Origin: Candidatus Bathyarchaeia archaeon
GTDB taxonomy: Bacteria; Patescibacteriota; Microgenomatia; UBA1400
NCBI GenBank assembly: GCA_035529355.1
Contig: DATKWX010000008.1
Location: 1 to 40,500 of the forward strand
Direction of reading: 5' to 3'
Length of the DNA stretch: 40,500 nt
Position numbers and translations under genes: made by a program. The notes beneath the pieces were generated by a model. It was not told the DNA's origin. It saw nothing but the letters and a program-made list of their open reading frames with translations, and searched no databases. Numbering within the stretch: position 1 is the stretch's first letter; each line of letters opens with the position of its first letter. Below are positions 6,051-19,615 of this stretch, one piece after another.

Positions 6051-6060
6051 ATTTTTAATA

Positions 6061-6113: not shown

Positions 6114-6117
6114 CATG

Positions 6118-6126: not shown

Positions 6127-6150
6127 CAAAAAGCTTAATAAAATAGAAAA

Positions 6151-6180: not shown

Positions 6181-6184
6181 TTTG

Positions 6185-6551: not shown

Positions 6552-6985
6552 GATCGAAAAAAAGAGAAATTTTTTTGTGGTAGTTAGTCCGAATAAAAAA
6601 GTAGTCACAGAATAATGCTTTGCTATGTTTGACTTAGATGAAAAACTTATAATAAAATATAAATTTAATATACACAAAAAAAGGTATAAAAATTATAATA
6701 GAATTGAAGACCTATAAATAGTATAAATAATAGTAAATTTGTAATATTAATTAAAAAAACCTTTTTAACAGATTTCTTTTATTGTAGGCGTTAAATCTTA
6801 CTAATTTAGCAACTAAAAGGTTTTTAAAGAGTAAGTTACCACATTTTTATTGCACAAAAAAATTGATCAAAAACATAAAATTAGAATTTAACCCGGAAAA
6901 ACGTTTTATCCTCTAAACTAGAAGTCCATTTATCCTATAGAATTGCTCTTCGCCTGTAAACTGATATTTTTGGTTTTAATCCGCT

Positions 6986-7001
6986 TTTTTCTTGAGAAAA
7001 A
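6986..7001. promoter_or_regulatory. palindromic motif TTTTTCT-TG-AGAAAAA upstream of giant gene 1 (shared with giant gene 2)
   Basis: The 15-mer TTTTCTTGAGAAAAA at 6987-7001 recurs exactly at 15708-15722. Arms TTTTCT/AGAAAA are reverse complements. Confidence 0.35.
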
Positions 7002-7138: not shown

Positions 7139-7167
7139 TTGACATAGTACCCATAATAGGTAACAAT
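7139..7167 (+). promoter_or_regulatory. candidate promoter of giant gene 1
   Basis: TTGACA at 7139-7144, with a weak -10 (AACAAT 7162-7167, 17-nt spacer). The context ACTTGACA is shared with the paralog upstream region. Confidence 0.3.
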
Positions 7168-7195: not shown

Positions 7196-10100
7196 ATGTC
7201 AAAATTCACTGCCCATGCCAGTAAAGTTATTGAAAAGGTCGCTTTGGGGCGCCTTAAAAAGGCGGAAGCGAGCCGTTTGCTCAAGGTTTCCCGTAAAACC
7301 GTTTATCAGTGGTTAGCCAAATATAAAAAGGCTAGAGAGAATAGGCTTCGCCACGGAAAAAAAAGAGAATTATTTAAACAAGATGTTTTAAGAATTGGTT
7401 TGGCTAATTCCGGCTTCGGACCGAAGAAAATCTCAGAAGAACTTCGTAAAAGAGAAAAATATCTTAGCCCTAAAAGTGTTTGGCTTTTGCTTAAAGATTT
7501 AGATCTGGGGACGCAGAAAAAGCGTTGGAGTTATACTTTCAACTTCAGGAAACCTCAACAGGTCAAAGATGCTAACTTTCCTGGTTATTTAAGGCTCATT
7601 CCGGAAACAAGGAAGCAGCTTTTGGAAGAAGTATTGATTGGAGATGAACCGGTTTCCCATGTCTGTCAGCGCTACCATATTTCCCGAAAGACTTTCTATA
7701 AATGGTTAAAGCGCTACCAAGAGGCACAAGCTAAAGATACGGTTCTTGTAAAGGCCATGGCAGATAACAATCCTTTGGGTTTTGCTCATCCCCGGGCAAT
7801 TTCTGAAGAACTGCAGGAAAAGATACTATATATAGTAAGAGAGCATCCGGAGTACTCGACTCACAAAGTGGCCCAGGTATTAGCTAAAGTAGGTAACCAT
7901 GGGGTGCAAAATGTTTTTCAAAGGTTTAACCTTAGTACCTATGAGAAAAGATTGGTTTACAGCCAAGCTTATCAGCCAGTAACACTGCCTCCTTTTGCCC
8001 GGATCCTGGATTTCCTCAAACCCGTTTTTGGCAGACTGCCTACCTTGTCTGCTATTCCTCCGCCTCTTATAGCTCTATTAGCAAATCTTCTGGTAAAACT
8101 TCGAAGACTTAGTCTGTCTTCTTTAAAAGAGATTAATTTAAAACAGATTAATTTCAAAAAAATCAAGCCTCTTTTACCCTATTCCTTCCTCAGTTTCCTT
8201 GCCGCTGTTGTTTTCTCCTCAGGCTTTATTTACTGGACTAAAATGTTATCTCAGGCTCCCAATCTGAGTGCTAAGATAGGCTTGGTCATGGCCAGCAGCG
8301 CTTTGTTCTTCGGTTCCATCTTCTTTGTCTATTCCCTCAAGTATTACTTTAGCCTCATCCTGGTTTTGTCTTTTTCCCGGCATTCCCCTGAAGAAGGCGG
8401 AGGTCTGAGCATTGCTTTGAATGGGAGGGTTAATGGTAATAGGAATGGTTATGGTAATGGTAGCAGTAATGCTAATGGCAATACTACTATTAATAGTCAT
8501 ACCGGGTTTTTAGGTTTCCTTAAGAAGGTCTTTGGGATTGAGGTTACTGCTAATGGGAATGGAGAAGGCAATGGTTATTCTAATGGTGAAGGTAGTACCA
8601 CCAGCCAAAACCCCAAACAGTCTTTCCTGGAAAATGGCGGAGAGCATCAGGGAAATGGTCTTCAGCCCAACCTTGACCATATCTTTCTTACCCGTCATCC
8701 TTTCATCTCCATCCAGATTCCTTTGTACAACGAGAAGAGAGTAGCCAAAAGAGTCATCAAAGCCTGCATGGCGATGAAGTATGGCCCGGATTGGCCAGAC
8801 CAACCCCAGTTTGAAGTGATTGTTTGTGATGACTCCAATGACGAAACCAGTAAACTCATCTCAGACCTCCAAAGAACCTATGGCAAGGTTAAGGTCATCA
8901 TGGGAGAAGACGGAGAAAAGATCTCCCAGGTCTCAGCCATCGGTAAACCTACCCTCAAGGTAATCCACCGGGAGAACAGGGAAGGTTTCAAAGGCAAAGC
9001 CCTGTCTTATGCCCTCAAATACATGGATTCCCAAACTGAGTTTTGTTGTGTCTTTGATGCTGACTTTGTTCCTTACCCCGATACCCTTACTCAGTTCATC
9101 AAGTATTTCAAAGCCACCGGCGGCTGGGAAGAGAAACAGAGATTTGTAACAGGAAGCATTAGTTCGATACCTTCTGATATATTGGGAAGGACAAGGCTTA
9201 ACCGCAGTCAGGAGCAAGCCTACCAAGTCCAGGAAGCAGGACTTAAGACCAAGTCCAATATCGCCTGTATTGCCGGCTACCAATGGCATGTCTTAAACAA
9301 ATCAGAAAACTGGATTACCCGGGGAGTAAGATCAGAATATGCCGGATCCTACGTCATTGAAAGACCAAGCCAGGAAATCCTGGGCAGTCTAAAACTCATC
9401 CATGGTTCTTCATACTGCATGAGAGCTGATGTCCTAAAGCACTTTGGCTGGGGAACAAGTATCACTGAAGACTTTGAACTTACCCTAAGACTATATGAAA
9501 AAGGCTTCAAGGTTGTCTACACTCCCTATGTCCAAGCTCCGGCTGAGTGTGTGAGTACCATCAAAAGACTCATCAGGCAGAGAATGAGGTGGGCTGAAGG
9601 CCACTCCTTTAATATCAAGAAGATGTTTGGGAGACTGATGTTTGGTAGGTGGCAAGAGCTTCAACCTTGTCATTCTGAATTTATTTCAGAATCTTCTCCC
9701 AAAACCGTCATACTGAATTTATTCCAGCATCTTTTTCATCTTAGAAAGGTAGGGATCCTGAAACAAGTTCAGGATGACGTTGGACGTCAAGTCCAAAGCC
9801 TGTCCCGAATTCATTTCGGGAATGACGCGGTAGAAGGTAGTGCTAGACGCTTCATCCCCAGCCCTCTTACTTTCCCTGAAAAAGTGGAATTCCTTTACTT
9901 ATCTCCCTACTACCTCCAGGCTTTCTTTTTCCTTTTAGGCACCTTTTCCTGGTTAATTGCCGAAACCGTCTTCAAAGCAAGGCTGCCTTTTTGGACAGCC
10001 TTATGGGGTTGGTCTCTGGTTTTGACCAACTTCTTTGCCTTACCTTTGCTTAATGCTGTTGGCCTCTTTCTTGAAGAAGCAGAAGAAAAAGACTATTCAG

Positions 10101-13100
10101 GTTTAGCTTCCTTCATTATCCTTTCCTACATCCTTGTTCCTTTCCAAGCCTATGCTTCGGTTAAAGGCTTCATGGAGAAAAAAGAAGGTCCTTGGTTCAG
10201 AACTCCCAAGACTGGAAAGATTACTGATGTTTTCAAAAGAGGTAGTTTTTATCGCTGGGTATCAGGAATACTGCCGGGAAGGAAACTGCCTTCTTTTGGT
10301 TTCTCTTTTCAGTCCCGTGACCTGGCCCTAAACTACCTTCATGATATTACTACCAGTAACAATCCTTTTAGCAACTTCAGGATCAGAAAAAGACATTACC
10401 GGGGTTTTATGGCAACCATGCTTGTTTTCCTGATCATTTGTTCTTCCACCATCTTCAGCATGCTGCCTTCAGTTCCCCAAAACAAGATTCCCTATGCCCA
10501 GGCTCAGGGACAGCTGGGGATTAGTCCTACATCAGCAGAGAACAAAGACACAGCAGACAATGGGAACACCAAGCTGGCCTTAAACTCCATCCCACCTTCT
10601 GGTAATGGAAAACCACCAGTGATTCTGACAGACAACAGAGAGAAGAATTCAGAATCAGCTCAGACCTACCTGCCCGGCAGGCAGGATTCAGAACTGGAAG
10701 AAACAGCCATGAGCGGGAATCAAACCCCAAGTCTTAAAGTTGAAGAACATAGTCCTGATAAAACTCCCCAGGACTTTTACCTTAAAGTCGTAGATCCTGA
10801 GTCCGCAGAAGGAAATGATAAAGGTAACTTTGTTCCTTACAGACTGACTAAGAAAGACAACACCATTGAAGTAGAAACCAGATCAGAAAAAGGCATCCAG
10901 AAGATAGTGATGGATAAAAACTCAACAGAAGTTAGACTTTATGAAAAAACCACAGCCCCAGACACCCCCGAGGTGAATTCTGCAGACACCTCGGGGGTGA
11001 ATCAGGAAGCAACTGACTTTGTTTTTAAGGCAGTCTCGGTACCTATCTTTGAGTACCTTCCTAATGATCACCTCCAAGGTGATTCTTCCTGGCAGGATTA
11101 CACTCCTTTAGTACCGGGAACTTTATCTTCCCAAGACAATGAGGATTACGCTATAGTAAGGTTAGACTTTGACCTTGTTTCCCAGGATCCCTTTGTTTCT
11201 ATCCCAGCTTCCATAGAACTTAAGATAGGCTACAGCAAAGACCAGGGAAGCATTAACAAACTTTCCTTTAGCCTTCAAGATAATCCTAATACCAATAGAC
11301 TAAGGTGGGAGACTAAGATAATTCAGAATTCACCTGCCAGCAATGCTTCGCCCGCCAGCAATGCTTCGCAAAACGATGCGGGCTGGCAAAGCGAGGCAGA
11401 CGGGGAATTCAGAATTCAGAATGATAATTTCAACCTGACAGAACAAAGGAATGAAGACCTGGAACAGCTTTACCAGGCTTCCATCATAAACCCTCCGCTG
11501 GTAAAACAAGACTTTGATAACCTCAACCTAAACTGGTTTGATTTCTTCAAACAGTATTCCTACCCTCCTTATTTAGGAAACAGCGTCAGGGTAGAACAAA
11601 ACGCAGAGGATAATACCAATACGGTTATCTTTTATCCGGAAGGAAAACCAGGCAGGTTGGAGGTGGACCCGACGGTAACTACGACGGTGGCTGTTTCAAC
11701 AATCACGGTTCAAAGTTCAGACTTTGATAACTCCGGCTCAACAGGTTTCAAGATAATCTTTGACAATACTAAAGGTGGCACCATTGATGAGTTTTACCAT
11801 GATTCAATTGGTGTCGGAGCTACTAATATTGTTTCTGGTAATGCTGTTTATGATGCTTTGTTTGATATTGAATATGATGACGCATATCTTTCTGGTGATG
11901 CGACTGGTTCTTTAACCTTAATTGAAGCTAGCCCCAATAGGGCAGTAGTGAAGGCAGTTGGTAATGTGACTACAAATGATGTAGCGACGATTGACTACAC
12001 CATTTATCCTGATGGTCAAGTTTTTATGAAAGTGGCTTTAGAGATTAAAGACGGAGAAAGGAATGGTGAAGGTGATATGTTCTTTCTGATTCAGGACTAT
12101 GACGGTTATAAAGAAACTTACTCAAGCGTGGATGATACTAACAAAGCGGTTGTTTTATTGCCTGACGCCAGCGGTTTTGATACAGCTTTAATTCCTTACT
12201 CAAGTTCTTATGTGGGAACAGTTGATAACGCTGCCAGTGAAGCTAATGACAATATCATGGTCAAATACGATTCAGCGGCTTCAGGCTATGATGATGAAAC
12301 CACGGTTGAAAGTTACTGGTTTTTGGATCTTTCCGAAAGCGCTTATGATGCCACGCTTTTGACCAACAGAAGAAACGAATACCGGAATTTGGAAAATCCT
12401 GATGTTTTGCAAAACCTAAGTCCGACGGTAGTTTCTCCATCTGATTCTTCACCTCCAATTCAGTTATCAAAAGGCTCAATCCAGGTTGATGTGCCTAACA
12501 GATACCGGGCAGTGATGCAGACAGGGGATACGGAGGACTATATGTTAATCTATGACCGGGCGCAGAATGACAGCAGTCCTCTTAATACTTATGAATTTAT
12601 GGGGCCATATATTTATGAAGATAGTGCTGCCTATATGTTAAGGTATCATAACTTGAGAAAGACAACTATTCTGGAGTCTTCCAGTGTAAGAGTGAGAGTG
12701 AGAGTTGAGGGTTGTTTTGACACTGTCGCCGGCGGCGCCTGTCTCGGCGGGACTGATTTTACGGTGATTGAAGATTACACTTTTACCACCGAAGGCATCT
12801 ATGTTTCCAACATTACCGACTTTAATAGCGGCGGCGTGGCTTTAGATACACCGGGAGCCAATGAAAACGGCTACAACTTCCTGATGATTGATGGTGATAT
12901 TCAGGATGATGCTTTTGCTGGTACTTTATATTACGGAGACGGCAATACCGAAGCTAGTTCAGCTGTAGACGCGACTTTTGAGGAAACTAACATTTATGCG
13001 ACTTTTCCGGCGGTTGACGCTTCCGGCTATCAGTCGGCTATTGTCGGTATCCAAAGAGATGGTTGGCTTGACCAAGCAGGAGGAACAGAAGACTGGCGGA

Positions 13101-15637
13101 TTGATATCGGCGTCGGCACCACCGACCGGCTCCACGCCCGAGAGGGCAATGTTACGCCAACAGGCCTTCTCTATGCCAAATGGTATTTTTTGCTCCAGCC
13201 CGAGAACGACTTGGATGCTGAAGCCGAAAGAGAGAGCTTTAACAACGATAATCGTAATCCCGACACTCTCACTTTTGCCACCGGTAACCAATGGAGTTTT
13301 GAGGACGATTCGGACTTGGAGGGACTGTGGTATATGGAGAGCGATGGCTCAACTGCTGAAACCGATCAATCCACTAGGGGTAATAACTTAACGGTTAGTA
13401 CAGACGACACTATACCGCGAACCACCGATGCCAGAGAAGGAACCTACTCCAGGGATTTTGAAAGAAGTGACACTGATTCTTTAGGTATTGCCGATGCCAG
13501 CCAGAAAGGACTGGATTTTACCGCTGTTTTTACTCTTTCCGCTTGGGTGAATCTTGAAACAAACACAAGCGCAGGCGATATAATTTGTAAAGGCAGTTCC
13601 GGAGTGGCAGCCGTCGGTGCTTACAGTATGTACTACAGCGCTGGAAATGGCCTTGGAGCTAGATTAAGTAATGGAAGCGCTTTTAGCTGGCTTGAAACAG
13701 CAGGATCGGTATTGCCTGATGGAAGTTGGAGTCACGTGGCACTTACTTTCAACGGCGCTACAGTCAGAGCTTATATCAACGGTTCGGAAAACCGGACCGG
13801 CAGTTTTCCGGCAAGTTACGCCAATACGTTAGCCAACAGTTCTTACTATTTTTGTATCGGCGGCACTGGCGGAAGTACAAGTTGTAGTGGAACCTTTGAT
13901 GGTTTAATTGATGAGGCCGCTGTTTTTTCCCGCGTCCTATTCCCTGCAGAAATTGAGCAGATTTATAAAGCCGGAGTCAAAGAACACTACAACGAAGCTG
14001 AAGGAGCTTATACGGTTGACGCTTCAGGTTCGCAGGTGAATTTGGATATTGATGGAGGGAGTAACGCTTCGACAGCTGTTGCGACGACAGCAGTTACGGT
14101 TGGAGTAACCTCTATCACCGTTGGTTCAACCACAGGCTTTCCCGCCGCTCCCAGTCTAGCCTATATTGACGGCGACAAGTTTTCCTATACCGGTACAACC
14201 GCGACTACCTTTACCGGTATCCCTGCCAACGGAGAACTCTCTGTTACCGATCATGCTATCGGCAGCGTGGTTTCTTCTATGAACCGGTACAAGCCTAACT
14301 TTAAAATCCGTAACTACCGCCAAAACAGCAAGCCAAGTTCCGTGACCATGGAAGGAGCCGCGCTGGTTGAAGGCACAAATTATAATGTTGACTATAAACC
14401 GGTCTCCGACGCCTATTTTGCCGATGAGTTGCTTTGGGCTTCGACATTAGAAAGCGCCGCGGTGGTGACTAGTCCAGATATAGGTGGCGCCGGTTCAGAA
14501 TGCGGTACTAAACCGAGCTATACTACTGGGAAGTATGGAAATGGGGTTAAGTTTGATGCCAGTGGTGAATGCCTGTATTTTGCCACTACGGGTAACTTTG
14601 ATAAGGCAAAAGGGGCGATTGAATTTTGGTATAAACCAACATTAGTCTATAGTGATGCAGCAACCCATTATTTTATTCAATTATACCAAGACGCTAATAA
14701 TTACTTCCAATTTTACAAAGCAAGTAGTAACAATTTGATTTTCATAATCGATGCCAGCAGTACTCAAAGTGGTGTTCGAGTTGTAAGCACTAACTATTCC
14801 TGGGCCGCTGGCGATTGGGTTCATTTACGAATCCAGTGGGACGATACTGATCTCAGTACCGAAACCCAGATGAAAATTTACATTAATGGAGTGGAGTCGG
14901 CCCATGATCATCCTGCAGCCAACGACTATAACTCAGCTAATTTGACTCTTCCAACTAATATAGGAATTAGTAATTCTGCTGCTGGACTCCATGCTGATGG
15001 GATTATCGATGAATTTCGCGTCTACGGTGGTGCTGCCGCCACTCCAATTACTCTGGCCGATGGCGGCGATATTGCTGATACTGACGAATATCTTTTTGAC
15101 GAAGAAAATGATTATCAATTAGACTTTGATCCGGTTGATGCTGATGCTACAGAAAGAGGAGAATATCTTTTCTTGGGTGCTGACACGATGTTTGCGGGGG
15201 TTAATATTGATCTAGCTACCAATGGGGCAACAGCCGGAAGCTTGAACCTTGTTTGGGAATACTGGAATGGGTCTTCTTGGGCTGATCTTGAGAGTATCTC
15301 CGGGTTTACTGATGGTACCAGCAACCTCACCACTGATGGAGCGATTTACTGGAATGCCAATCCTACCAACTGGAGGCCATACTCAGTTAATGGCTCAAGC
15401 GATCTTTACTATATCCGTACCTCTCTGAAGGATGATTCGGGAACTTATTCCACTGATCCAATTGAAAACTTTATTAAAACTGATATCCTAATCCTCCAAT
15501 ACCTGAGCAACGTTGTTTCAGACAGCCAGACCTTGGTGGTCGTACCGGAATACCTCTGGCCATTCCTGGCAATCATTCCTTTTATCCCAGGGTTTTTGAA
15601 GAAAAGAAAAAAGGGTCAGACCCTGTTAAGGATCTGA
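7196..15637 (+). CDS. giant multidomain membrane protein: 2x transposase-type HTH modules + processive GT2 synthase + LamG-containing ectodomain + C-terminal sorting signal
   Basis: Uninterrupted 8442-nt ORF. 7196-7960: two HTH+winged-HTH modules of IS630/IS481 N-terminal type (SRKTVYQWLAKYKK; SPKSVWLLLKDLDL; ISRKTFYKWLKRYQEAQ; HPEYSTHKVAQVL) with no DDE domain. About 8170-8390: TM helices. 8408-8670: Asn/Gly linker. 8695-9625: GT2 core with DD 8828-8833, DAD 9056-9064, TED 9464-9472 and QRMRW 9578-9592. About 9630-9860: 71 extra codons absent from the paralog. 9890-10160: TM helices, then PWFRTPKTGK. 10411-10467: TM anchor. 10470-15544: ectodomain with two LamG/ConA-like modules (about 13315-13970 FDGLIDEAAVFSRVL; about 14425-15030 ADGIIDEFRVYGG). 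15545-15634: PEY-TM-KKRKK tail. Confidence 0.85.
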   Translation: MSKFTAHASKVIEKVALGRLKKAEASRLLKVSRKTVYQWLAKYKKARENRLRHGKKRELFKQDVLRIGLANSGFGPKKISEELRKREKYLSPKSVWLLLKDLDLGTQKKRWSYTFNFRKPQQVKDANFPGYLRLIPETRKQLLEEVLIGDEPVSHVCQRYHISRKTFYKWLKRYQEAQAKDTVLVKAMADNNPLGFAHPRAISEELQEKILYIVREHPEYSTHKVAQVLAKVGNHGVQNVFQRFNLSTYEKRLVYSQAYQPVTLPPFARILDFLKPVFGRLPTLSAIPPPLIALLANLLVKLRRLSLSSLKEINLKQINFKKIKPLLPYSFLSFLAAVVFSSGFIYWTKMLSQAPNLSAKIGLVMASSALFFGSIFFVYSLKYYFSLILVLSFSRHSPEEGGGLSIALNGRVNGNRNGYGNGSSNANGNTTINSHTGFLGFLKKVFGIEVTANGNGEGNGYSNGEGSTTSQNPKQSFLENGGEHQGNGLQPNLDHIFLTRHPFISIQIPLYNEKRVAKRVIKACMAMKYGPDWPDQPQFEVIVCDDSNDETSKLISDLQRTYGKVKVIMGEDGEKISQVSAIGKPTLKVIHRENREGFKGKALSYALKYMDSQTEFCCVFDADFVPYPDTLTQFIKYFKATGGWEEKQRFVTGSISSIPSDILGRTRLNRSQEQAYQVQEAGLKTKSNIACIAGYQWHVLNKSENWITRGVRSEYAGSYVIERPSQEILGSLKLIHGSSYCMRADVLKHFGWGTSITEDFELTLRLYEKGFKVVYTPYVQAPAECVSTIKRLIRQRMRWAEGHSFNIKKMFGRLMFGRWQELQPCHSEFISESSPKTVILNLFQHLFHLRKVGILKQVQDDVGRQVQSLSRIHFGNDAVEGSARRFIPSPLTFPEKVEFLYLSPYYLQAFFFLLGTFSWLIAETVFKARLPFWTALWGWSLVLTNFFALPLLNAVGLFLEEAEEKDYSGLASFIILSYILVPFQAYASVKGFMEKKEGPWFRTPKTGKITDVFKRGSFYRWVSGILPGRKLPSFGFSFQSRDLALNYLHDITTSNNPFSNFRIRKRHYRGFMATMLVFLIICSSTIFSMLPSVPQNKIPYAQAQGQLGISPTSAENKDTADNGNTKLALNSIPPSGNGKPPVILTDNREKNSESAQTYLPGRQDSELEETAMSGNQTPSLKVEEHSPDKTPQDFYLKVVDPESAEGNDKGNFVPYRLTKKDNTIEVETRSEKGIQKIVMDKNSTEVRLYEKTTAPDTPEVNSADTSGVNQEATDFVFKAVSVPIFEYLPNDHLQGDSSWQDYTPLVPGTLSSQDNEDYAIVRLDFDLVSQDPFVSIPASIELKIGYSKDQGSINKLSFSLQDNPNTNRLRWETKIIQNSPASNASPASNASQNDAGWQSEADGEFRIQNDNFNLTEQRNEDLEQLYQASIINPPLVKQDFDNLNLNWFDFFKQYSYPPYLGNSVRVEQNAEDNTNTVIFYPEGKPGRLEVDPTVTTTVAVSTITVQSSDFDNSGSTGFKIIFDNTKGGTIDEFYHDSIGVGATNIVSGNAVYDALFDIEYDDAYLSGDATGSLTLIEASPNRAVVKAVGNVTTNDVATIDYTIYPDGQVFMKVALEIKDGERNGEGDMFFLIQDYDGYKETYSSVDDTNKAVVLLPDASGFDTALIPYSSSYVGTVDNAASEANDNIMVKYDSAASGYDDETTVESYWFLDLSESAYDATLLTNRRNEYRNLENPDVLQNLSPTVVSPSDSSPPIQLSKGSIQVDVPNRYRAVMQTGDTEDYMLIYDRAQNDSSPLNTYEFMGPYIYEDSAAYMLRYHNLRKTTILESSSVRVRVRVEGCFDTVAGGACLGGTDFTVIEDYTFTTEGIYVSNITDFNSGGVALDTPGANENGYNFLMIDGDIQDDAFAGTLYYGDGNTEASSAVDATFEETNIYATFPAVDASGYQSAIVGIQRDGWLDQAGGTEDWRIDIGVGTTDRLHAREGNVTPTGLLYAKWYFLLQPENDLDAEAERESFNNDNRNPDTLTFATGNQWSFEDDSDLEGLWYMESDGSTAETDQSTRGNNLTVSTDDTIPRTTDAREGTYSRDFERSDTDSLGIADASQKGLDFTAVFTLSAWVNLETNTSAGDIICKGSSGVAAVGAYSMYYSAGNGLGARLSNGSAFSWLETAGSVLPDGSWSHVALTFNGATVRAYINGSENRTGSFPASYANTLANSSYYFCIGGTGGSTSCSGTFDGLIDEAAVFSRVLFPAEIEQIYKAGVKEHYNEAEGAYTVDASGSQVNLDIDGGSNASTAVATTAVTVGVTSITVGSTTGFPAAPSLAYIDGDKFSYTGTTATTFTGIPANGELSVTDHAIGSVVSSMNRYKPNFKIRNYRQNSKPSSVTMEGAALVEGTNYNVDYKPVSDAYFADELLWASTLESAAVVTSPDIGGAGSECGTKPSYTTGKYGNGVKFDASGECLYFATTGNFDKAKGAIEFWYKPTLVYSDAATHYFIQLYQDANNYFQFYKASSNNLIFIIDASSTQSGVRVVSTNYSWAAGDWVHLRIQWDDTDLSTETQMKIYINGVESAHDHPAANDYNSANLTLPTNIGISNSAAGLHADGIIDEFRVYGGAAATPITLADGGDIADTDEYLFDEENDYQLDFDPVDADATERGEYLFLGADTMFAGVNIDLATNGATAGSLNLVWEYWNGSSWADLESISGFTDGTSNLTTDGAIYWNANPTNWRPYSVNGSSDLYYIRTSLKDDSGTYSTDPIENFIKTDILILQYLSNVVSDSQTLVVVPEYLWPFLAIIPFIPGFLKKRKKGQTLLRI
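9669..9826. mobile_element. cluster of four small palindromic (GTCATTC..GAATGAC family) hairpin units embedded in frame in the giant CDS
   Basis: 9669-9693: GTCATTCTGAA-TTTAT-TTCAGAATC. 9707-9731: degenerate copy. 9755-9778: ATCCTGAA-ACAAG-TTCAGGATGAC. 9802-9826: GTCCCGAA-TTCAT-TTCGGGAATGAC. The segment is missing from the paralog at the homologous position. The same unit family is intergenic at 23913-24002. Confidence 0.6.
11333..11368 (+). repeat. 18-bp tandem duplication (PASNAS x2) inside the giant CDS
   Basis: cctgccagcaatgcttcg / cccgccagcaatgcttcg, 17 of 18 identical. It is flanked by ATTCAGAAT(TCA) repeats at 11321-11332 and 11407-11422. Confidence 0.7.
15545..15634 (+). other. C-terminal tripartite sorting signal (PEY - hydrophobic helix - KKRKK)
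   Basis: PEYLWPFLAIIPFIPGFLKKRKKGQTLLRI. The layout matches PEP-CTERM/PEF-CTERM-type signals. The motif PFIP and the basic cluster are shared with the paralog tail. Confidence 0.55.
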
Positions 15638-15640
15638 CCT
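15612..15640. repeat. REP-like palindromic hairpin, copy 2 (degenerate), containing the stop codon of giant gene 1
   Basis: AGGGTCAGACCCT-GTTA-AGGATCTGACCT. It is followed by CCTAACGAA (15638-15646) and CCCTAACGAA (15652-15661), whose reverse complement flanks copy 4. Confidence 0.55.
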
Positions 15641-15707
15641 AACGAATTAAACCCTAACGAACTAAAGAAGCAAAAATACCTTAAGCAAAAATAGTCTTTT
15701 TACCTCA

Positions 15708-15722
15708 TTTTCTTGAGAAAAA
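15708..15722. promoter_or_regulatory. palindromic motif TTTTCTTGAGAAAAA upstream of giant gene 2
   Basis: Exact 15-mer match to 6987-7001. A second shared 13-mer, TTGATCAAAAACA, lies at 15739-15751 (also 6863-6875). Confidence 0.35.
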
Positions 15723-15897
15723 CTGCCGGGTATAAAGTTTGATCAAAAACAGGCAAACTTCAGCTAATTGATTTTAAGATTTTCTTGGATCTTAGTCTCC
15801 AGTCACATAGAACAGAATATTTTTCTTCTTAAAAATGATTTTGATAGCTAATTTTCTTCTACTACAGAAAAAAAGCCAAGAAAGTGAAAATTATTAC

Positions 15898-15928
15898 TTG
15901 ACAGATTATATCCAATTAATGTTAACAT
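15898..15928 (+). promoter_or_regulatory. candidate promoter of giant gene 2
   Basis: TTGACA at 15898-15903 in the same ACTTGACA context as 7139. Only a weak -10 (TAACAT 15923-15928, 19-nt spacer). TATAAT at 15930-15935 is too far away for this -35. Confidence 0.25.
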
Positions 15929-15980
15929 ATATAATATTAGACAGAAAATCAAAAAGAAGTACCCAAAATCTGTTAACAAA

Positions 15981-18900
15981 ATGACTACCAAACTGTCTGT
16001 TCAGCAAAGAATAAGGTTGATAAATAAGGTTACTAAAGAGGGAAGGTCTGTTTCTGAGGTTTGCAAAAAAGCCGGTATTTCCCGTGTCCTTTTTTACCGC
16101 TTACTAAAACGGTATCAGGAAGAGGGAACAGTTAGGCCTAAAAAAAACAAAGGAAAAAGGCCAACCCGGAGAGTCAGCGAAGAAAATGTTATCAAAATAA
16201 TTAGCTTGGTTAAGAAACATCCCCGGTGGTCTTCTCATCAGTTAAGCCAACATGTTTCCACAGGCAATCATGGGGTATGGAATGTTTTAGCCAGGTTGCA
16301 CCTAAATACCGTTAAGAAAAGGGAGTATTTCAGCAAGCAAAGCCGCAATTTAACCTTTGGCCGGTTGCGCAAACTGGCAAGAGGAGAGATTAAAAGTCCC
16401 AAGCCAACAGCTTTAAAACTCAAGGCCAGCAGGCGTTTGGCCATGATTAAGCAAATAGAAGAAGGGCAAAAGCCGGTAGCCCAGGCTTGCCGGGAGTTTG
16501 GTATTTCCCGGCCAGTCTTTTATAAATGGTATCAGCGTTATCTTGAAGCTCCGAGAGGGCAGAAATTGGTGGCCATGAAAGATAAAGAACGGAAAATTGA
16601 ACGCTTTAGCCGCCAGATTCCGGTTAAATACGAAAAAGCGGTGTTGCAGGCAGTGGTTAGGCATCCCGAATACGGGATTAAGAAAATAATGGTTTGTTTA
16701 CCCCAAATAGCGGCTAAGCCAATTGTAGGTTATCATGGCGTTCAGCGGGTTTTGGAAAGGAATAAACTAAACACTTATGAGTTGAGAAAAGCTTATGCTC
16801 AAACTCAGCTAACTCCCGTCATTAGAATCATTAGCATTCTTGAAGATAGCTTTGCCAAAATAGCTTACCTACCTCTTCTTGTCAGACAGAAATTTATCAT
16901 ATTAGGCAGTCTTGCGGTCTTTTCCTGCTTTTTGACCGTGGTAGGATTGGGAGCCTTAGGCTACTTTGGCAGTTTACTAAAACAAGTGCCAGGAAATGCT
17001 AAAATTGGTATTATTTTGGCTGGTAACGCCTTGGTTATTGGTTCAATCTTTTTTTGCTACTCTTTAAAGTACTATTTTAATTTGGCTTTAGTGCTTTCTT
17101 TTTCCAGGCATTCTCCGGAAGAAGGCGGAGGTCTAAGCCTATCCTTAAATGGGATAGTAAATAACAACAGGGCGGGTAATGGTAAAGGCAACGGTAAGCC
17201 TGGGTTTTTAGGTTTCCTTAAAAAGGTCTTTGGGGTTGACCTAGGCGCTAATGAGGGCGGTAACGGTTTTAAGAATGGCAAAAAGACATTTTTAGGTAAT
17301 GGTTTACGAATGCAGGATGGTGGTTTACAGATTAATATGGAGAGGATTGACCTTAACCGTCATCCTTTCATTTCCGTCCAGATCCCTTTGTACAATGAGA
17401 AGAGAGTAGCCAAAAGAGTCATCAAGGCCTGCATGGCCATGAAGTATGGCCCTGACTGGCCAGATAAACCCCAGTTTGAGGTAATCGTTTGTGATGACTC
17501 CAATGATGAAACCAGTAAACTCATCTCAGACCTCCAGCAAACCTATGGCAAGGTTAAGGTAGTTAGGGGAGAAGACGGAGAAAAGATCTCCCAAGTCTCA
17601 GCCATCGGTAAACCTACCCTCAAGGTAATCCATCGGGAGAACAGGGAAGGTTTCAAAGGCAAAGCTTTATCTTATGCCCTGAAGCACATGGATCCTCAAA
17701 CCGAGTTTGTTTGTGTCTTTGATGCTGACTTTGTTCCTTACCCCGATACCTTAATCCAGTTTATCAAGTATTTTAAGGCTACCGGTGGCTTTGAAGAAAA
17801 ACAGAGTTTTGTAACAAAGAATATTAGTTCGATACCATATGATATATTGGCAAGGAATAATCCACAGGGAAATACCAACCTAACCAGAGATCAGAAGCAA
17901 GCCTATCAAACCCAGGAAGCAAGACTTAAGAACAAGTCCAATATAGCCTGTATTGCCGGCTACCAATGGCATGTCTTAAACAAATCAGAAAACTGGATTA
18001 CTAGGGGAGTCAGATCAGAATATGCCGGATCCTACGTCATTGAAAGACCAAGCCAGGAAATCCTAGGCAGTTTAAAGCTTATCCATGGCTCTTCATACTG
18101 CATGAGAGCTGATGTCCTAAAGCACTTTGGCTGGGGTAGTAGTATTACTGAAGACTTTGAACTTACCCTAAGACTATATGAAAAAGGTTTCAAGGTTGTC
18201 TACACTCCCTATGTCCAAGCTCCGGCTGAGTGTGTGAGTACCATCAAAAGACTGGTTAGACAGAGAATGAGATGGGCTGAAGGCCACTCGTTTAATATCA
18301 AGAAGATGTTCTGGTTGCTGATAAAAAGTCCAGGGATGAACTTAATGGAGAAAACAGAGCTTTTATATTACACACCCTATTACCTCCAGGCATTTTTATT
18401 TTTAGTTGGCACTTTTTCCTGGTTGTTGGCAGAAACCGTCTTTAAAGCCCATCTGCCTTTCTGGACCTCACTTTGGGGTTGGAGTCTAATTTTGACCAAC
18501 TTTTTCAGCCTGCCTTTACTTAATGCCGTGGGTTTATTCCTTGAGGAAGCGGAGGAAAAAGATTATTCAGGCCTGATTTCCTTTATTATCCTTTCCTACA
18601 TCCTTGTTCCTTTTCAAGCTTATGCTTCGGTCAAAGGATTCCTGGAGAAAGAAGAAGGTCCCTGGTTCAGAACTCCCAAGACTGGAAAGATTACTGATAT
18701 TTTTAAAAGAGGTCAATTTTACCGTTGGATAGCAGGAATTTTGCCCAGGCGGGAACCAGCATTGCAAGGAGTGATGGGAAGCGGCTTGGTTCCTGCTTAT
18801 GCTTATCAGCAAAACCCTTATTTGGTCCGGCAAACAGCCACAGGCTGGTTTAACAATTTTCGCGTCCAACCCAAGCGTTTGCGTTGGGTTTCAAAAATGG

Positions 18901-19595
18901 CCTTGTCTCTTTTACTGGCTTTTTCCGTGACTCTTTTAAGTTTAAGTCAAGGGGTAAGAGAAGTTCAGGCAAGCCCTTGGAACAATTTATACTTACATGA
19001 AGATAATGGGGTATGCAGCACTTTGGATACCATGACGACTTCAGTCGGAACAACAGGCCAACAGCAAATAGTGATTTCCGCCTCAAATACGGGTCCTTTT
19101 AACTGGTATTCAAACTCCTTGCCTACCGGTACTCTTGATGCTTCAACAACCGCTGGCAACTGGAATTTCCATTGGGAGGGAGTATTTTATGCTGCCGCTG
19201 GTGGAGCCAAGGTGGTACTTAATATTGTGATTAGTTTGGTTGATGCTTCAGATTGTAGCAGCAGTGCCGATAATTTATATAGCGGAACTTACCAGTTTAG
19301 CTCCAATGGTCCGATAACGATTACTACTGCTGTTCCAGCACGAACAATCACTACGGCTGCTCCCAAAAGAGTCAGGTGGCAGACTTCTTGGAGTAGTACC
19401 AATAAGGCCGGTTCGACAATGAGCATTAAATACAATGATACGGTGGTCAGTGGTTTTGATTCCAATCTTCAGCCAGCGACTTTAACGATTCCGGAAAGAC
19501 TAGTTTTACTGCTGGTGGTAGCGCCCTTTATTCCCATACTTGCAAGTTGGCTTAAGAAGAAAAGAGAAAAGGGTCAGACCCTTGACAGGGTCTGA
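15981..19595 (+). CDS. paralogous multidomain membrane protein: 2x HTH modules + processive GT2 synthase + short ectodomain + C-terminal sorting signal
   Basis: 1204-aa ORF. 15981 to about 16800: two HTH modules (GISRVLFYRLLKRYQEEG; GISRPVFYKWYQRYLEAPRG; HPEYGIKKIM). TM helices and an NG linker follow. 17361-18300: GT2 core nearly identical in DNA to copy 1, with QRMRW at 18261-18275. More TM helices and PWFRTPKTGK follow. 18897-18955: TM anchor. The ectodomain is about 180 aa. 19491-19592: PER-TM-KKKREK tail. Confidence 0.85.
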   Translation: MTTKLSVQQRIRLINKVTKEGRSVSEVCKKAGISRVLFYRLLKRYQEEGTVRPKKNKGKRPTRRVSEENVIKIISLVKKHPRWSSHQLSQHVSTGNHGVWNVLARLHLNTVKKREYFSKQSRNLTFGRLRKLARGEIKSPKPTALKLKASRRLAMIKQIEEGQKPVAQACREFGISRPVFYKWYQRYLEAPRGQKLVAMKDKERKIERFSRQIPVKYEKAVLQAVVRHPEYGIKKIMVCLPQIAAKPIVGYHGVQRVLERNKLNTYELRKAYAQTQLTPVIRIISILEDSFAKIAYLPLLVRQKFIILGSLAVFSCFLTVVGLGALGYFGSLLKQVPGNAKIGIILAGNALVIGSIFFCYSLKYYFNLALVLSFSRHSPEEGGGLSLSLNGIVNNNRAGNGKGNGKPGFLGFLKKVFGVDLGANEGGNGFKNGKKTFLGNGLRMQDGGLQINMERIDLNRHPFISVQIPLYNEKRVAKRVIKACMAMKYGPDWPDKPQFEVIVCDDSNDETSKLISDLQQTYGKVKVVRGEDGEKISQVSAIGKPTLKVIHRENREGFKGKALSYALKHMDPQTEFVCVFDADFVPYPDTLIQFIKYFKATGGFEEKQSFVTKNISSIPYDILARNNPQGNTNLTRDQKQAYQTQEARLKNKSNIACIAGYQWHVLNKSENWITRGVRSEYAGSYVIERPSQEILGSLKLIHGSSYCMRADVLKHFGWGSSITEDFELTLRLYEKGFKVVYTPYVQAPAECVSTIKRLVRQRMRWAEGHSFNIKKMFWLLIKSPGMNLMEKTELLYYTPYYLQAFLFLVGTFSWLLAETVFKAHLPFWTSLWGWSLILTNFFSLPLLNAVGLFLEEAEEKDYSGLISFIILSYILVPFQAYASVKGFLEKEEGPWFRTPKTGKITDIFKRGQFYRWIAGILPRREPALQGVMGSGLVPAYAYQQNPYLVRQTATGWFNNFRVQPKRLRWVSKMALSLLLAFSVTLLSLSQGVREVQASPWNNLYLHEDNGVCSTLDTMTTSVGTTGQQQIVISASNTGPFNWYSNSLPTGTLDASTTAGNWNFHWEGVFYAAAGGAKVVLNIVISLVDASDCSSSADNLYSGTYQFSSNGPITITTAVPARTITTAAPKRVRWQTSWSSTNKAGSTMSIKYNDTVVSGFDSNLQPATLTIPERLVLLLVVAPFIPILASWLKKKREKGQTLDRV
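19491..19592 (+). other. C-terminal tripartite sorting signal (PER - hydrophobic helix - KKKREK)
   Basis: PERLVLLLVVAPFIPILASWLKKKREKGQTLDRV. It shares (V/I)PE-x-L, PFIP and a Lys-rich cluster with the 15545-15634 signal, although the two ectodomains are unrelated. Confidence 0.55.
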
Positions 19596-19598
19596 CCC
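19571..19598. repeat. REP-like palindromic hairpin, copy 3, containing the stop codon of giant gene 2 and lying 5' of the RAYT gene
   Basis: GGGTCAGACCCT-TGAC-AGGGTCTGACCC, a 12-bp perfect stem. The loop TGAC is the reverse complement of the copy 1 loop GTCA. Confidence 0.65.
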
Positions 19599-19615
19599 TC
19601 ATGTTAGCCTGAGCT

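Follow-up and report, generated by a model that had tools for sequence, protein, structure and literature searches.

The closest functional analogue of the proteins described here is the BcsA-BcsB pair, which the original prediction for this DNA did not consider. The pair is sometimes encoded as a single polypeptide, and the minimal synthase core comprises six transmembrane (TM) helices (PMC8892547). As to protein sorting, PEP-CTERM-type signals are defined by their tripartite build (PMC1569441), while CadC and ToxR set a precedent for membrane-integrated DNA-binding regulators (PMC6320335, PMC7888679). The window analysed here, a stretch of 40,500 nucleotides from contig DATKWX010000008.1, encodes two tandem paralogs, each of which would consist of a six-helix synthase core and three added modules, i.e. 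a DNA-binding head, an ectodomain and a sorting tail.

Two giant genes of a widespread family

7196 to 15637, + strand: copy 1, HTH-GT2 synthase with ectodomain and PE tail, 2813 aa (ORF and domain matches)
9641 to 9862, + strand: in-frame insert of copy 1, ~74 aa, clustered DNA hairpins (folding z-score -3.8)
15981 to 19595, + strand: copy 2, paralog of copy 1, 1204 aa (ORF, domain matches and model)

Both plus-strand ORFs are present as originally described, and the seven parts that had been assigned to them were found in the proposed sequence in either protein. The architecture had been called unmatched. No characterised family with the same order of domains was found, yet the copies are not a one-off: a species-representative genome collection contained 277 relatives, mostly Microgenomates, and 71 of 75 family genes encode the HTH head; head-less members also exist. 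The copies are genuine members of a widespread, unstudied family, mostly of Patescibacteria (ultrasmall bacteria), which annotation pipelines label generically as 'cellulose synthase/PNAG synthase-like glycosyltransferase/transposase'.

ORFs of this size might be artefacts of a chimeric assembly, of read-through of genuine stops or of pseudogenes in decay, and three observations point in this direction. The protein collection has no exact copy 1 protein; copy 1 carries the repeat-like in-frame insertion, which is located in the loop behind the QRMRW helix and is missing from copy 2; and the MAG of the contig is labelled Bathyarchaeia, yet all relatives are bacterial. Nevertheless, we regard an artefact as extremely improbable. 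A chimera is very unlikely because an ENA assembly has identical bases across 23.6 kb, possibly with the same reads underneath, and, more tellingly, because 71 of 75 family genes, drawn from many genomes with the closed chromosomes CP011214.1 and OY970314.1 among them, have the domain order of the copies. Furthermore, both copies retain every invariant family residue, other family members reach 3592-3725 aa, and the family member L056 is 59% identical to the final 544 aa of copy 1. The tandem paralogs share a homogenised core, while their heads and tails are ancient and divergent. This pattern, the internal signal-like helix with its VxA site and the family-specific promoter with its head-tracking class go beyond the original prediction.

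Catalytic core and predicted fold

8162 to 8377, + strand: copy 1 TM1-TM2 hairpin, aa 323-394, invariant YSLKYY (hydropathy, alignment)
8384 to 8680, + strand: copy 1 Asn/Gly-rich cytoplasmic linker, aa ~397-495 (sequence)
8681 to 9640, + strand: copy 1 GT2 catalytic domain (Pfam, family alignment), with CDDSND 8825-8842, FDADF 9053-9067, YQWHVLNK 9278-9301, ITEDF 9461-9475 and QRMRW 9578-9592
9863 to 10255, + strand: copy 1 TM3, TM4, interface helix, then gating-loop-like WFRTPKTGK at 10193-10219 (alignment, hydropathy, model)
16860 to 17105, + strand: copy 2 TM1-TM2 (hydropathy, AlphaFold model)
17346 to 18323, + strand: copy 2 GT2 domain, QRMRW at 18261-18275 (Pfam, alignment, model)
18324 to 18725, + strand: copy 2 TM3, TM4, interface helix, WFRTPKTGK at 18663-18689 (hydropathy, model)

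Glyco_tranf_2_3, Glyco_trans_2_3 and Glycos_transf_2 (Pfam/NCBIfam) matched both proteins. The GT2 motifs that had been read from the sequence, DD, DAD, TED, QRMRW and FRTPKTGK, correspond to residues that are invariant in an alignment of 66 family sequences, namely D501/D502, D577/D579, T719-E720-D721, Q757-R-M-R-W761 and W891-F-R-T-P-K896-G898 (numbering starts at copy 2 residue 5; the copy 2 residue is the number + 4). According to hydropathy and the AlphaFold model (mean pLDDT 77), two TM helices precede the GT domain and the N/G-rich linker is disordered; then follow another two TM helices with interface helices, a single TM helix ahead of the ectodomain and a last one at the C-terminal end. 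The two TM helices, the Asn/Gly linker, whose copy 2 equivalent is disordered in the model, and the further TM helices after the GT2 domain were thus seen as proposed. Number and sequence of the elements (2 TM, GT, TM/IF, gating loop, 2 TM) agree with the six-TM minimal core (PMC8892547).

The structure comparison that the original prediction had suggested revealed a resemblance to BcsA and to hyaluronan and chitin synthases. With Foldseek the best PDB match of the model was E. coli BcsA (E 2.9e-14); further matches were Chlorella-virus HAS (target TM-score 0.55-0.56, rmsd ~6 Å), Xenopus HAS1, yeast and oomycete chitin synthases and plant CesA. The equivalog models CelA, PgaC and NodC all scored far under their cutoffs and thus gave no polymer assignment. 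Taken together, the copies are probably processive, membrane-integrated GT2 polysaccharide synthases of the BcsA/HAS/chitin-synthase structural class, whose core would polymerise a nucleotide-sugar and extrude the glycan.

The HTH head and the promoters

7217 to 7540, + strand: copy 1 HTH module 1, aa ~8-115 (Pfam HTH_29 aa 11-57; IS3 N-terminal profile aa 18-114)
7592 to 7960, + strand: copy 1 HTH module 2, aa ~133-255 (HTH_28 aa 139-176, HTH_32 aa 166-233, IS481 profile 2-110)
15990 to 16799, + strand: copy 2 tandem HTH head, modules aa 4-122 and 148-273 (Pfam/NCBIfam; pLDDT ~90)
7139 to 7165, + strand: copy 1 promoter, class B, TTGACA (-35 box), TAGTACCCATAATA, GGTAACA (conserved operator-like spacer)
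15898 to 15978, + strand: copy 2 promoter, class A, TTGACA-N19-TAACAT with ATATCCA...TGTTAACA (15898-15927)
15959 to 15978, + strand: copy 2 second motif, GTACCCA-N6-TGTTAACA, 2 nt ahead of the ATG
5733 to 6490, - strand: two divergently oriented MerR-like HTH genes, 5733-6050 and 6185-6490 (translations)

A transposase-type HTH pair without a DDE domain had been predicted and was recovered with HTH_28/23/29/32 and HTH_Tnp_1, which gave two modules per protein (Pfam and NCBIfam). Neither ORF matched an rve/DDE domain in Pfam or NCBIfam, and the match of the head to the IS481 transposase profile was confined to positions 1-113 out of 284, with 67-105 bits vs a cutoff of 224. Among 1.84 billion proteins there were 986 relatives of the head at E<=1e-3, almost all of them synthase N-termini and not transposases; the short matches that were inspected were truncated synthases. 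The head relatives being synthase N-termini, an old domestication is indicated and not a recent IS insertion.

A composite promoter is located upstream of 50 of the 66 family genes. Its conserved operator-like motif is TACCCA-N-TGTTAACA or GGTAACA; 33 of the 50 TGTTAACA sites in 1.12 Mb are located upstream of a synthase start codon at a distance of no more than 300 nt. The promoter class tracks the head lineage (30:3 vs 2:13, Fisher p 2.6e-7), which could be plain linkage because promoter and head are adjacent. The cytoplasmic head, whose two HTH modules derive from transposases, is most likely a DNA binder with the bipartite motif of its own promoter as probable target. The synthase would then be a membrane-tethered autoregulator, and autoregulation via the head is probable.

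Sorting tail, mini-exosortase and ectodomain

15545 to 15637, + strand: copy 1 C-terminal signal, VPEY, hydrophobic stretch with PFIP, KKRKK
19491 to 19595, + strand: copy 2 C-terminal signal, IPER, hydrophobic stretch with APFIP, KKKREK
3556 to 4101, + strand: mini-exosortase/archaeosortase-family membrane protein, 181 aa (TIGR04178, 33.1 bits vs cutoff 23)
10373 to 10504, + strand: copy 1 internal segment resembling a signal peptide, basic n-region and TM helix, AQA|Q after aa 1103
10505 to 15544, + strand: copy 1 ectodomain, aa 1104-2783, acidic, S/T/N-rich
13505 to 13954, + strand: copy 1 LamG/ConA-like module 1, aa 2104-2253 (Laminin_G_3, E 1.4e-24)
14591 to 15034, + strand: copy 1 LamG/ConA-like module 2, aa 2466-2613 (Laminin_G_3, E 3e-15)
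18843 to 18971, + strand: copy 2 internal signal-peptide-like segment, VQA|S after aa 997
18972 to 19490, + strand: copy 2 ectodomain, aa 998-1170, beta-sandwich in the AlphaFold model

The PE/hydrophobic/basic tail of both copies is conserved family-wide with an invariant Pro and Glu in at least 90% of the sequences, and 105 distinct tails gave the consensus (V/I)-P-E-(N/K/R)...P-F-(I/L)-P...(K/R)4. Within the loci examined it occurs on synthases only. In copy 1 the last 7 codons lie within a palindromic repeat. The C-terminal signal of the original prediction thus exists, but its assignment to sortase (LPXTG) was rejected in favor of the exosortase/PEP-CTERM type in view of the tripartite build and of an exosortase-family gene in the window. 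None of the NCBIfam sorting-signal models recognises the tail. Residue 3 of the motif is not Pro, which speaks against a PEP-CTERM reading, as does the fact that classical PEP-CTERM proteins carry a signal peptide at the N-terminus and are otherwise without TM helices (PMC1569441).

The mini-exosortase family has invariant Cys87, Arg132 and His152 and at least 394 clusters of relatives, to which NCBI and JGI give the name exosortase/archaeosortase family. The original prediction had suggested a search for co-occurrence; of 49 synthases, 32 have the gene directly downstream (-200 to +1000 nt) and 44 have it no farther than 10 kb away. This synteny spans phyla and includes an HTH-less relative from a different lineage with high GC, in which both genes overlap each other. 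The product of 3556-4101 is a likely candidate for the processing enzyme of both tails: the (V/I)PE-x, hydrophobic (PFxP) and basic tail would serve as substrate signal for a dedicated mini-exosortase whose gene lies beside the synthase, and this enzyme would cut the ectodomain off its C-terminal anchor.

Extracytoplasmic domains had been proposed for both copies and are present. They are opened by the internal signal-peptide-like helix with a conserved VxA site. In the predicted signal-peptidase site, 53 of 65 sequences have Ala/Ser/Gly at -1 and 52 of 65 have Val/Ala/Gly/Ser at -3, with variable surroundings; a rather long predicted c-region of ~9-11 residues counts against such a site. The ectodomains are rich in S/T/N (25-35% vs 12-17%) and have few basic residues and a low pI (4.1-5.0 vs ~9.8), a composition which fits exported PEP-CTERM cargo. 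They are hypervariable across the family, and the N-terminal ~1000 aa of the copy 1 ectodomain are nearly orphan. Both LamG/ConA-like modules predicted in copy 1 were found as Laminin_G_3, which of the two copies only copy 1 has and in the family only some members. The ectodomain, placed between the last two TM helices and entered via the signal-peptide-like helix, would be exported co-translationally, and signal peptidase perhaps frees it from the synthase. The released domain would be fixed at the cell surface to a presumed acceptor and bind or organise glycan or act as a variable adhesin. Because LamG modules occur in some members only and the ectodomain is hypervariable, a self-contained module for making, binding and displaying a glycan is put forward as a hypothesis only.

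Alternative readings

Alternatively, the ectodomain may be an uncleaved, permanent extracytoplasmic insertion between core TM5 and TM6, which guides or binds the nascent glycan like BcsB does for BcsA. The C-terminal helix would be an integral channel part, and the conserved PE and PFxP residues would be needed for the packing of helices or for the small exosortase-like protein to dock in a non-catalytic role. The six-TM minimal core is indeed reached only when the last helix counts. This helix is at the position of the sixth core helix in BcsA/CesA-type synthases; therefore its removal might harm the enzyme. Also, LamG modules are present in some members, and a subclass has ~35 extra residues behind the basic cluster, i.e. 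a longer cytoplasmic tail, which speaks against cleavage. On the other hand, the invariant Cys/Arg/His triad of the neighbour argues for catalysis, the tail is built like a tripartite sorting signal whose Pro-Glu falls exactly on the outer boundary of the membrane, the family preserves the VxA site, and hypervariability suits an exposed surface protein better than a conserved polymer guide. A domain search detected no BcsB domain in either copy. We consider a permanent loop a possible, though doubtful, explanation.

A similar question concerns the head, which may be a domesticated transposase remnant without action on DNA, for example a cytoplasmic cap that sits on the GT domain at the PilZ position of BcsA and has a role in regulation or protein interaction. 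The conserved promoter motif would then be bound by another factor such as a sigma factor or the MerR-like neighbours, which could be alternative candidates. Divergent MerR-like genes are located upstream in the window and their homologs upstream of synthases at 16 of 48 loci. A 19-nt spacer, as in the class A promoters, is typical for promoters under MerR control. Moreover, some family members have no head, and an HTH-less relative has a similar upstream GTACACCC-N4-GTAACA, which counts against the head as the motif binder. Yet the recognition-helix signature (G/Y)ISRxxFY(R/K)W is preserved in both HTH modules family-wide (66-sequence alignment), the promoter is accompanied far more regularly by the head (71/75) than by MerR, the non-palindromic bipartite motif fits a monomer with tandem HTH, and the two promoter classes match two ancient head lineages. 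A mere remnant is thus unlikely. We favor, as moderately probable, the view that the copies are modular, probably autoregulated synthases which also use a dedicated mini-exosortase to deliver a variable surface domain.

Comparison with known systems

The heads share HTH_28/23/29/32 with the N-terminal DNA-binding region of IS481/IS630/IS3 transposases, but are without a DDE/rve domain and terminal inverted repeats and score below the family cutoffs. Like the synthases, ToxR and CadC have a cytoplasmic N-terminal DNA-binding domain, a membrane tether and an extracytoplasmic part, and they reach chromosomal targets (PMC6320335, PMC7888679). In contrast, they use an OmpR-type winged helix and a single TM helix and contain no enzyme, and DNA binding by the synthases is putative.

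Common to PEP-CTERM/exosortase systems (EpsH, XrtA) and the genes described here are a C-terminus with motif, TM helix and a cluster of basic residues, an exosortase-family enzyme that is polytopic and has Cys/Arg/His, the genomic link to polysaccharide synthesis and an S/T/N-rich cargo (PMC1569441). Here, however, the motif is (V/I)PE-(N/K/R) instead of PEP, the signal resides on the synthase itself instead of separate secreted proteins, and the enzyme has only ~180 aa and belongs to no named Xrt type (XrtK 17 bits vs cutoff 55). GT models associated with XrtP and XrtG scored 20-42 bits vs cutoffs of 364-520. The host organisms are generally regarded as having no outer membrane, which is a further difference.

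HAS (Chlorella virus, Xenopus) and chitin synthases/NodC have a similar overall fold (target TM-score <=0.56, rmsd ~6 Å, ~495 residues) and the same sequence of two N-terminal TM helices, GT domain, interface and TM helices. Yet identity is only 13-16%, the copies score 17-25 bits on the NodC model vs a cutoff of 550, and those enzymes are without head, ectodomain and sorting tail. BcsA is likewise a membrane-integrated GT2 with D, DxD, TED and Q(R/Q)xRW, TM helices on either side of the GT domain and, behind an interface helix, a gating loop with an F-x-(V)-T-x-K-like motif, and the BcsA-BcsB arrangement has its parallel in the copies, namely in their signal-like helix, their ectodomain and their C-terminal anchor. 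Differing from BcsA, the copies contain no PilZ/c-di-GMP module and no detectable BcsB domain, score 54-66 bits on the CelA model (cutoff 699) and have WFRTPKTG instead of FxVTxK as gating motif; the HTH head, the hypervariable ectodomain, the PE sorting motif and the partner exosortase are features of their own family.

Organization of the gene pair

Two giant open reading frames lie in tandem:

7196-15637, + strand: copy 1, 2813 aa
15981-19595, + strand: copy 2, 1204 aa

In both copies Pfam and NCBIfam identified two HTH modules (HTH_28/23/29/32 and HTH_Tnp_1), which form the N-terminal head, and a GT2 domain (Glyco_tranf_2_3, Glyco_trans_2_3, Glycos_transf_2). Copy 1 contains in addition a pair of Laminin_G_3 modules, one at aa 2104-2253 and one at aa 2466-2613. 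According to hydropathy, two TM helices follow the head and three hydrophobic helices follow QRMRW; a further TM helix precedes the ectodomain and another lies at the C-terminus. An N/G-rich linker and the PE/hydrophobic/Lys-rich tails are visible directly in the sequence of both copies. Thus the two ORFs and the order of parts proposed in the original prediction, i.e. head, TM helices, linker, GT2 core, further helices, ectodomain and C-terminal signal, were borne out by Pfam, NCBIfam, hydropathy and sequence, and HMM searches of sub-regions recovered all HTH, GT2 and Laminin_G_3 assignments.

The two copies are 53% identical across the first ~1090 residues and >90% identical in the GT2 core; their ectodomains are unrelated to each other. 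Besides the two LamG modules no further domains were found in pieces of the ectodomains (Pfam, E<=0.1). Within the copy 1 ectodomain the orphan half (aa 1106-2100) had only two available homologs and yielded an unusable model with a mean pLDDT of 33.

The synthase core

Both copies possess the catalytic motifs of processive GT2 enzymes (D, DxD, (T)ED, Q(R/Q)xRW). In an alignment of 66 family sequences including both copies, DD, DxD, TED, QRMRW, YQWHVLNK and WFRTPKTG were invariant. The AlphaFold model of copy 2 (mean pLDDT 77) showed a GT-A domain joined to a TM channel, and its fold resembled solved synthases. The best PDB matches were BcsA of E. coli and Rhodobacter and the hyaluronan synthases of Chlorella virus and Xenopus; fungal and oomycete chitin synthases and plant CesA were other top matches. 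Foldseek gave an E-value of 2.9e-14 to BcsA and a target TM-score of 0.55-0.56 to Cv-HAS. Thus the proposed likeness to BcsA, HAS and chitin synthase was found for all three. Sequence and profile searches against the PDB reached the generic GT-A half alone, and it was only the fold comparison that placed the core among the processive synthases.

The NCBIfam equivalogs scored far under cutoff in both copies, with 54-66 bits for CelA (cutoff 699), 61-68 bits for PgaC/IcaA (cutoff 422) and 17-25 bits for NodC (cutoff 550). BcsA proper also differs by its PilZ domain, which is absent here (Pfam), and a BcsB domain was not found in the synthase family. Because of the fold matches and the equivalog scores far below cutoff we assigned the synthase to the structural class and to no named enzyme.

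Cellulose synthases have a minimal core of six helices (PMC8892547). The helix order of the present synthases, i.e. 2 TM, GT, TM/interface helices, gating loop and 2 TM, is that six-helix minimum. The gating-loop position after the interface helix is occupied by the invariant WFRTPKTG, which differs from the canonical FxVTxK of BcsA and from WGTR/SGRK, the gating-loop motif of HAS. Taken together, the GT2 synthase core has six helices and its catalytic signature is complete.

The C-terminal tail and the mini-exosortase

The C-terminal signal had been taken to be of the sortase type, which was wrong: the tails contain no LPXTG and none of the ORFs in the window matched a sortase family. The tail consensus is (V/I)-P-E-(N/K/R) followed by ~18 hydrophobic residues with P-F-(I/L)-P and by ~4 basic residues. 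The Pro does not vary, and at least 90% of the sequences have the Glu, with an occasional Asp; copy 1 reads VVPEYLW and copy 2 TIPERLV. The tail thus has the three parts of a PEP-CTERM-type signal, in which a short motif at the outer face of the membrane is followed by a TM helix and then by a basic cluster (PMC1569441). It lacks a near-invariant Pro-Glu-Pro motif, as the common third residues after P-E are N, I, K and R and do not include Pro, and isolated 47-aa tails gave no match to the NCBIfam sorting-signal models at E<=1. Judged by its sequence the tail is of the exosortase/PEP-CTERM type and not of the sortase type.

A candidate for the processing of the tail is encoded nearby:

3556-4101, + strand: mini-exosortase, 181 aa

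The protein matched the exosortase/archaeosortase signature TIGR04178 with 33.1 bits (cutoff 23), and no named Xrt type of NCBIfam fitted. C87, R132 and H152 are invariant among its relatives; CxG, NxxR and H are present, the Asn not being invariant. With these residues the neighbouring mini-exosortase looks catalytic. Its family comprises at least 394 clusters (~180-210 aa), which in Patescibacteria bear the name 'exosortase/archaeosortase family protein'.

The suspected co-occurrence of this family with the synthases held up. Of 49 synthases, 32 are directly followed by a homolog and 44 have one within 10 kb. Among these is an HTH-less relative of 781 aa on a high-GC contig, with close relatives that are labelled Dormibacteraeota; here the synthase and exosortase genes overlap. 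In the window a Y1-transposase gene takes the usual downstream slot, and the exosortase gene is located 3 kb upstream of copy 1. In the +/-10 kb covered by the loci, the only carriers of the tail are synthases, one to three per locus.

In a subclass of family proteins (P0004, P0012, P0014, P0015, P0023, P0026-P0029 and P0032) ~35 extra cytoplasmic residues follow the PE/TM/basic tail. This extension, also present in locus L003 (9992-13450), ends in a conserved ...ALDELPV. We considered these tails as a second class without PE and rejected this, as PE is present further upstream. In L003, the sole locus of this subclass examined, an exosortase gene was not found within 10 kb; a correlation between a lack of PE and the missing exosortase of L003 was dropped because the LDELPV tails carry PE upstream.

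The internal signal-peptide-like segment and the ectodomain

About 60-70 residues past the gating loop nearly all family members have a segment that resembles a signal peptide, with a basic stretch, a hydrophobic helix of ~20 residues and a small-x-small site. In the family alignment the -1 column holds Ala in 45 of 65 sequences (Ala, Ser or Gly in 53) and the -3 column Val, Ala, Gly or Ser in 52 of 65, while the flanking sequence is otherwise variable. Cleavage is predicted between AQA and Q after aa 1103 in copy 1 and between VQA and S after aa 997 in copy 2. Signal peptidase may cleave at this internal site, which would make the gene a synthase-plus-cargo polyprotein.

Beyond the site the ectodomains are rich in Ser, Thr and Asn and poor in Lys and Arg, with a pI of 4.1-5.0 versus ~9.8 for the cytoplasmic parts. 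PEP-CTERM cargo is of like composition (PMC1569441). The family has a hypervariable exported domain, which is bounded by the signal-like helix and the PE-type tail.

The HTH head

Both HTH modules were confidently folded in the AlphaFold model of copy 2 (pLDDT ~90), and the recognition-helix signature ISRxxFY(R/K)W is kept in both modules in the family alignment. The proteins carry a cytoplasmic tandem-HTH head. In contrast to IS481/IS630 transposases only positions 1-113 of 284 of the IS481 profile were matched and DDE/rve was absent; the transposase models scored 67-105 bits versus 224 (IS481) and 44-53 bits versus 100 (IS630). An exhaustive scan of 1.84 billion representatives with the head as query returned 986 proteins at E<=1e-3. 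The best matches were synthase N-termini, and the short ones that were inspected break off in TM1-2 at contig ends. Because its close relatives are synthase N-termini, the head goes back to an old domestication rather than to a recent insertion of an IS.

Between the two window paralogs the heads share only ~25-30% identity, as compared with 52-56% to heads in other genomes. The core behaves in the opposite way with 93-100% aa identity within a genome and 60-67% between genomes. The same mosaic was seen in five further tandem-copy loci (L001, L003, L004, L010 and L070). Across tandem pairs the nucleotide identity of the core region (8687-10204 versus 17352-18674 in the window) is 80-92% within a genome, whereas heads and ectodomains of the same pairs are 10-45% identical. 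Because the identity patterns of core and head are opposite, the core has been homogenised between tandem copies, most simply by gene conversion, and the divergence of heads and tails is ancient.

A Site-2 protease (Peptidase_M50) was considered as a conserved neighbour that might free the head and was rejected, as it occurred in one locus only.

The family promoter

In 1.12 Mb of loci there are 50 occurrences of the palindrome TGTTAACA, of which 33 fall within the 19.8 kb just upstream of synthase start codons. The operator-like spacer TACCCA-N-TGTTAACA or GGTAACA is ~37-fold enriched upstream of synthase genes (L001-L079). A composite promoter was identified in 50 of 66 upstream regions, 34 of class A and 16 of class B.

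Promoter classes and their representatives in the window
Class A: TTGACA, N4, (G)TA(C/T)CCA, N5-6, TGTTAACAT; equals TTGACA-N19-TAACAT
Class B: TTGACA, N2-3, AGTACCCATGAAAGGTAACA
7139-7165, + strand: copy 1 promoter, class B
15898-15927 (region 15898-15978), + strand: copy 2 promoter, class A

Copy 2 has a second site, GTACCCA-N6-TGTTAACA, which ends 2 nt before the ATG. Such a site within 60 nt of the ATG was present in 19 of 34 class A regions versus none of 16 class B regions. Class A promoters go with 30 copy-2-like and 3 copy-1-like heads, class B promoters with 2 copy-2-like and 13 copy-1-like heads. Promoter class thus tracks head lineage (Fisher p 2.6e-7), promoter and head being physically linked. 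We concluded that the synthase genes have a dedicated promoter motif. The spacer is conserved across genes for proteins of only ~40% identity, which implies a bound factor.

Short blocks common to both upstream regions, TTTGATCAAAAACA and TTTTCTTGAGAAAAA, were noted at 6866-6880 / 15737-15751 and 6985-7000 / 15710-15725. They are partly palindromic and located well upstream of the promoters.

Distribution of the family

The original prediction could not match the architecture to any named family. It is correct that no named enzyme family fits; the proteins are no singleton, as they belong to a family of hundreds of relatives. A search of 5.8 billion proteins yielded 87 clusters with the HTH+GT2 fusion, from Microgenomates bacterium DG_75 and from Chisholm-, Curtiss-, Woese- and Nomurabacteria; at JGI they go under the name 'cellulose synthase/PNAG synthase-like glycosyltransferase/transposase'. 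A scan with one genome per species gave 277 relatives. A set of 73 loci was fetched, to which the closed genomes CP011214.1 and OY970314.1 contributed. The domain order recurs in public genomes, the head being present in 71 of 75 fetched genes with an intact 5' side. Gene lengths range from ~720 to 3725 aa with one truncated gene of >4540 aa, and two or more synthase copies are found in 12 of 77 loci. A second assembly record is base-identical to window positions 5981-29595. Databases annotate the family with generic names only, and a literature search found no paper on the HTH-synthase fusion or on exosortases in Patescibacteria/CPR. Thus the family is real, widespread and uncharacterised, yet assembled from known modules.

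Locus L030, considered as a natural split with a separate ectodomain gene, looks like a frameshift inside the signal-like helix and was uninformative.

The MAG of the contig is labelled Candidatus Bathyarchaeia archaeon (NCBI protein accessions HUV46556.1 and HUV46561.1). Every synthase and exosortase homolog is from Patescibacteria, and the promoters in the window are sigma-70-like. Because all relatives are bacterial, the label is likely due to mis-binning. Another contig with this label, L007, holds a third paralog.

Repeats and neighbouring genes

The palindrome GGGTCAGACCC-N6-GGGTCTGACCC with an 11-bp stem is present in four copies (6152-6182, 15613-15640, 19570-19600 and 20299-20328). 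Two of them overlap the ends of the giant ORFs, and the last seven residues (GQTLLRI and GQTLDRV) are therefore encoded by the repeat. Two copies flank ORF 19616-20275, an IS200/Y1-transposase-like gene of 219 aa, in a REP/RAYT arrangement; this ORF scored 39.5 bits with the model for REP-associated tyrosine transposases (cutoff 80) and 41.8 bits with Pfam Y1_Tnp.

Copy 1 contains at 9641-9862 (aa ~816-889) an in-frame cluster of small hairpins of ~220 nt including GTCATTCTGAATTTATTTCAGAATC and ATCCTGAAACAAGTTCAGGATGAC, which is missing from copy 2. It is situated in the cytoplasmic loop after the QRMRW helix, where P0068 and P0071 also bear insertions, and has a DNA folding z-score of -3.8. 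The insert looks like a small mobile palindromic element that is tolerated in a coding region. Neither this insert nor the GGGTCAGACCC palindromes were found in other fetched loci, and no Rfam RNA family was found in the window.

Further genes of the window
5733-6050 and 6185-6490, - strand: MerR/HTH_17-like genes, separated from the divergent copy 1 by 700 nt of AT-rich intergenic DNA
4279-5715, 20341-21660 and 33163-36390: polytopic membrane proteins
28563-30371, - strand: GT2 + radical-SAM/SPASM fusion, 602 aa
38514-40013, - strand: GT2 + class I methyltransferase fusion, 499 aa

The MerR-like protein of 5733-6050 has a C-terminal TM helix, and similar genes are located upstream of synthases in L001-L003. 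The three membrane proteins had no significant family match; with faint matches to PTPS_related/DUF6541 they may be GT-C-like. Homologs of 4279-5715 and 20341-21660 are near the synthase in 27 and 14 of 48 loci (>=12 kb), respectively. The two GT2 fusion enzymes belong to the glycan locus of the synthases. The remainder of the window is dense in GT4, GT2, methyltransferase, epimerase, PMT_2 and GH39 genes.

Discussion

The original interpretation, a self-contained module that makes a glycan, binds it and displays it on the surface, is partly supported. The core would make a glycan and extrude it. The exosortase would free the ectodomain from its C-terminal anchor, as signal peptidase perhaps does from the synthase, and the freed ectodomain may be fixed at the surface, either as a glycan binder (LamG in some members) or as a variable adhesin. 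By analogy with CadC and ToxR the head may repress or activate its own promoter from the membrane.

A more far-reaching possibility, which we consider rather unlikely, is a synthase-cargo polyprotein whose cargo is coupled by the exosortase to the product of the synthase or to a lipid, with autoregulation by the head. Signal peptidase would cut the conserved VxA site, and the mini-exosortase would cut at the PE motif and move the freed ectodomain to the glycan chain that the synthase itself makes, or to a lipid. The membrane-tethered head would read TACCCA plus TGTTAACA or GGTAACA in the promoter of its own gene, and the autoregulation of each paralog would depend on its head lineage. The outcome, if true, would be glycan-anchored variable surface proteins in bacteria without a conventional wall-anchoring route, and the first exosortase reaction with acceptor and purpose readable from one gene.

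The main rival to such a release is that the ectodomain is a permanent BcsB-like loop and the last helix is helix 6 of the core. The ectodomain is placed between helices 5 and 6. A similar caveat applies to the head as reader of the promoter, since a MerR-like neighbour may bind the motif: divergent genes of this type are present upstream both in the window and at 16 of 48 loci, a 19-nt promoter spacer is typical of MerR control, and a motif of similar sequence precedes the gene of an HTH-less relative. The constant companion of the promoter is the head, and a tandem-HTH monomer would fit the bipartite, non-palindromic site.

Surface building and host attachment of CPR bacteria are largely unknown, and the family is present in hundreds of CPR species, where its genes are often tandem paralogs and often the largest in the locus. 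The role of exosortases and their constant pairing with polysaccharide genes has been an open question since 2006. With the signal on the synthase and an exosortase of ~180 aa next door, the family offers a compact two-gene system for testing cleavage site, acceptor and function. If confirmed, a synthase that has both a DNA-binding head and a promoter motif to match it would represent a new type of enzyme-coupled gene control. The homogenised core with its ancient, divergent heads and tails is a clean case of modular evolution by gene conversion.

A synthase gene cut at the internal site would be similar to BcsB fused to BcsA, where BcsB has its own cleavable signal peptide and a tail anchor. 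PEP-CTERM cargo is a separate protein with an N-terminal signal peptide, whereas here a polytopic synthase bears the cargo as its C-terminal part and has only the internal signal-peptide-like helix. ToxR and CadC combine an OmpR-type winged helix with one TM helix and a periplasmic sensor; the synthase is polytopic with modules of the HTH_28/32 type, and the resemblance is functional only. Thus the family resembles a BcsA-BcsB fusion, a PEP-CTERM/exosortase system and a membrane-tethered regulator at the same time, and stands outside each of them.
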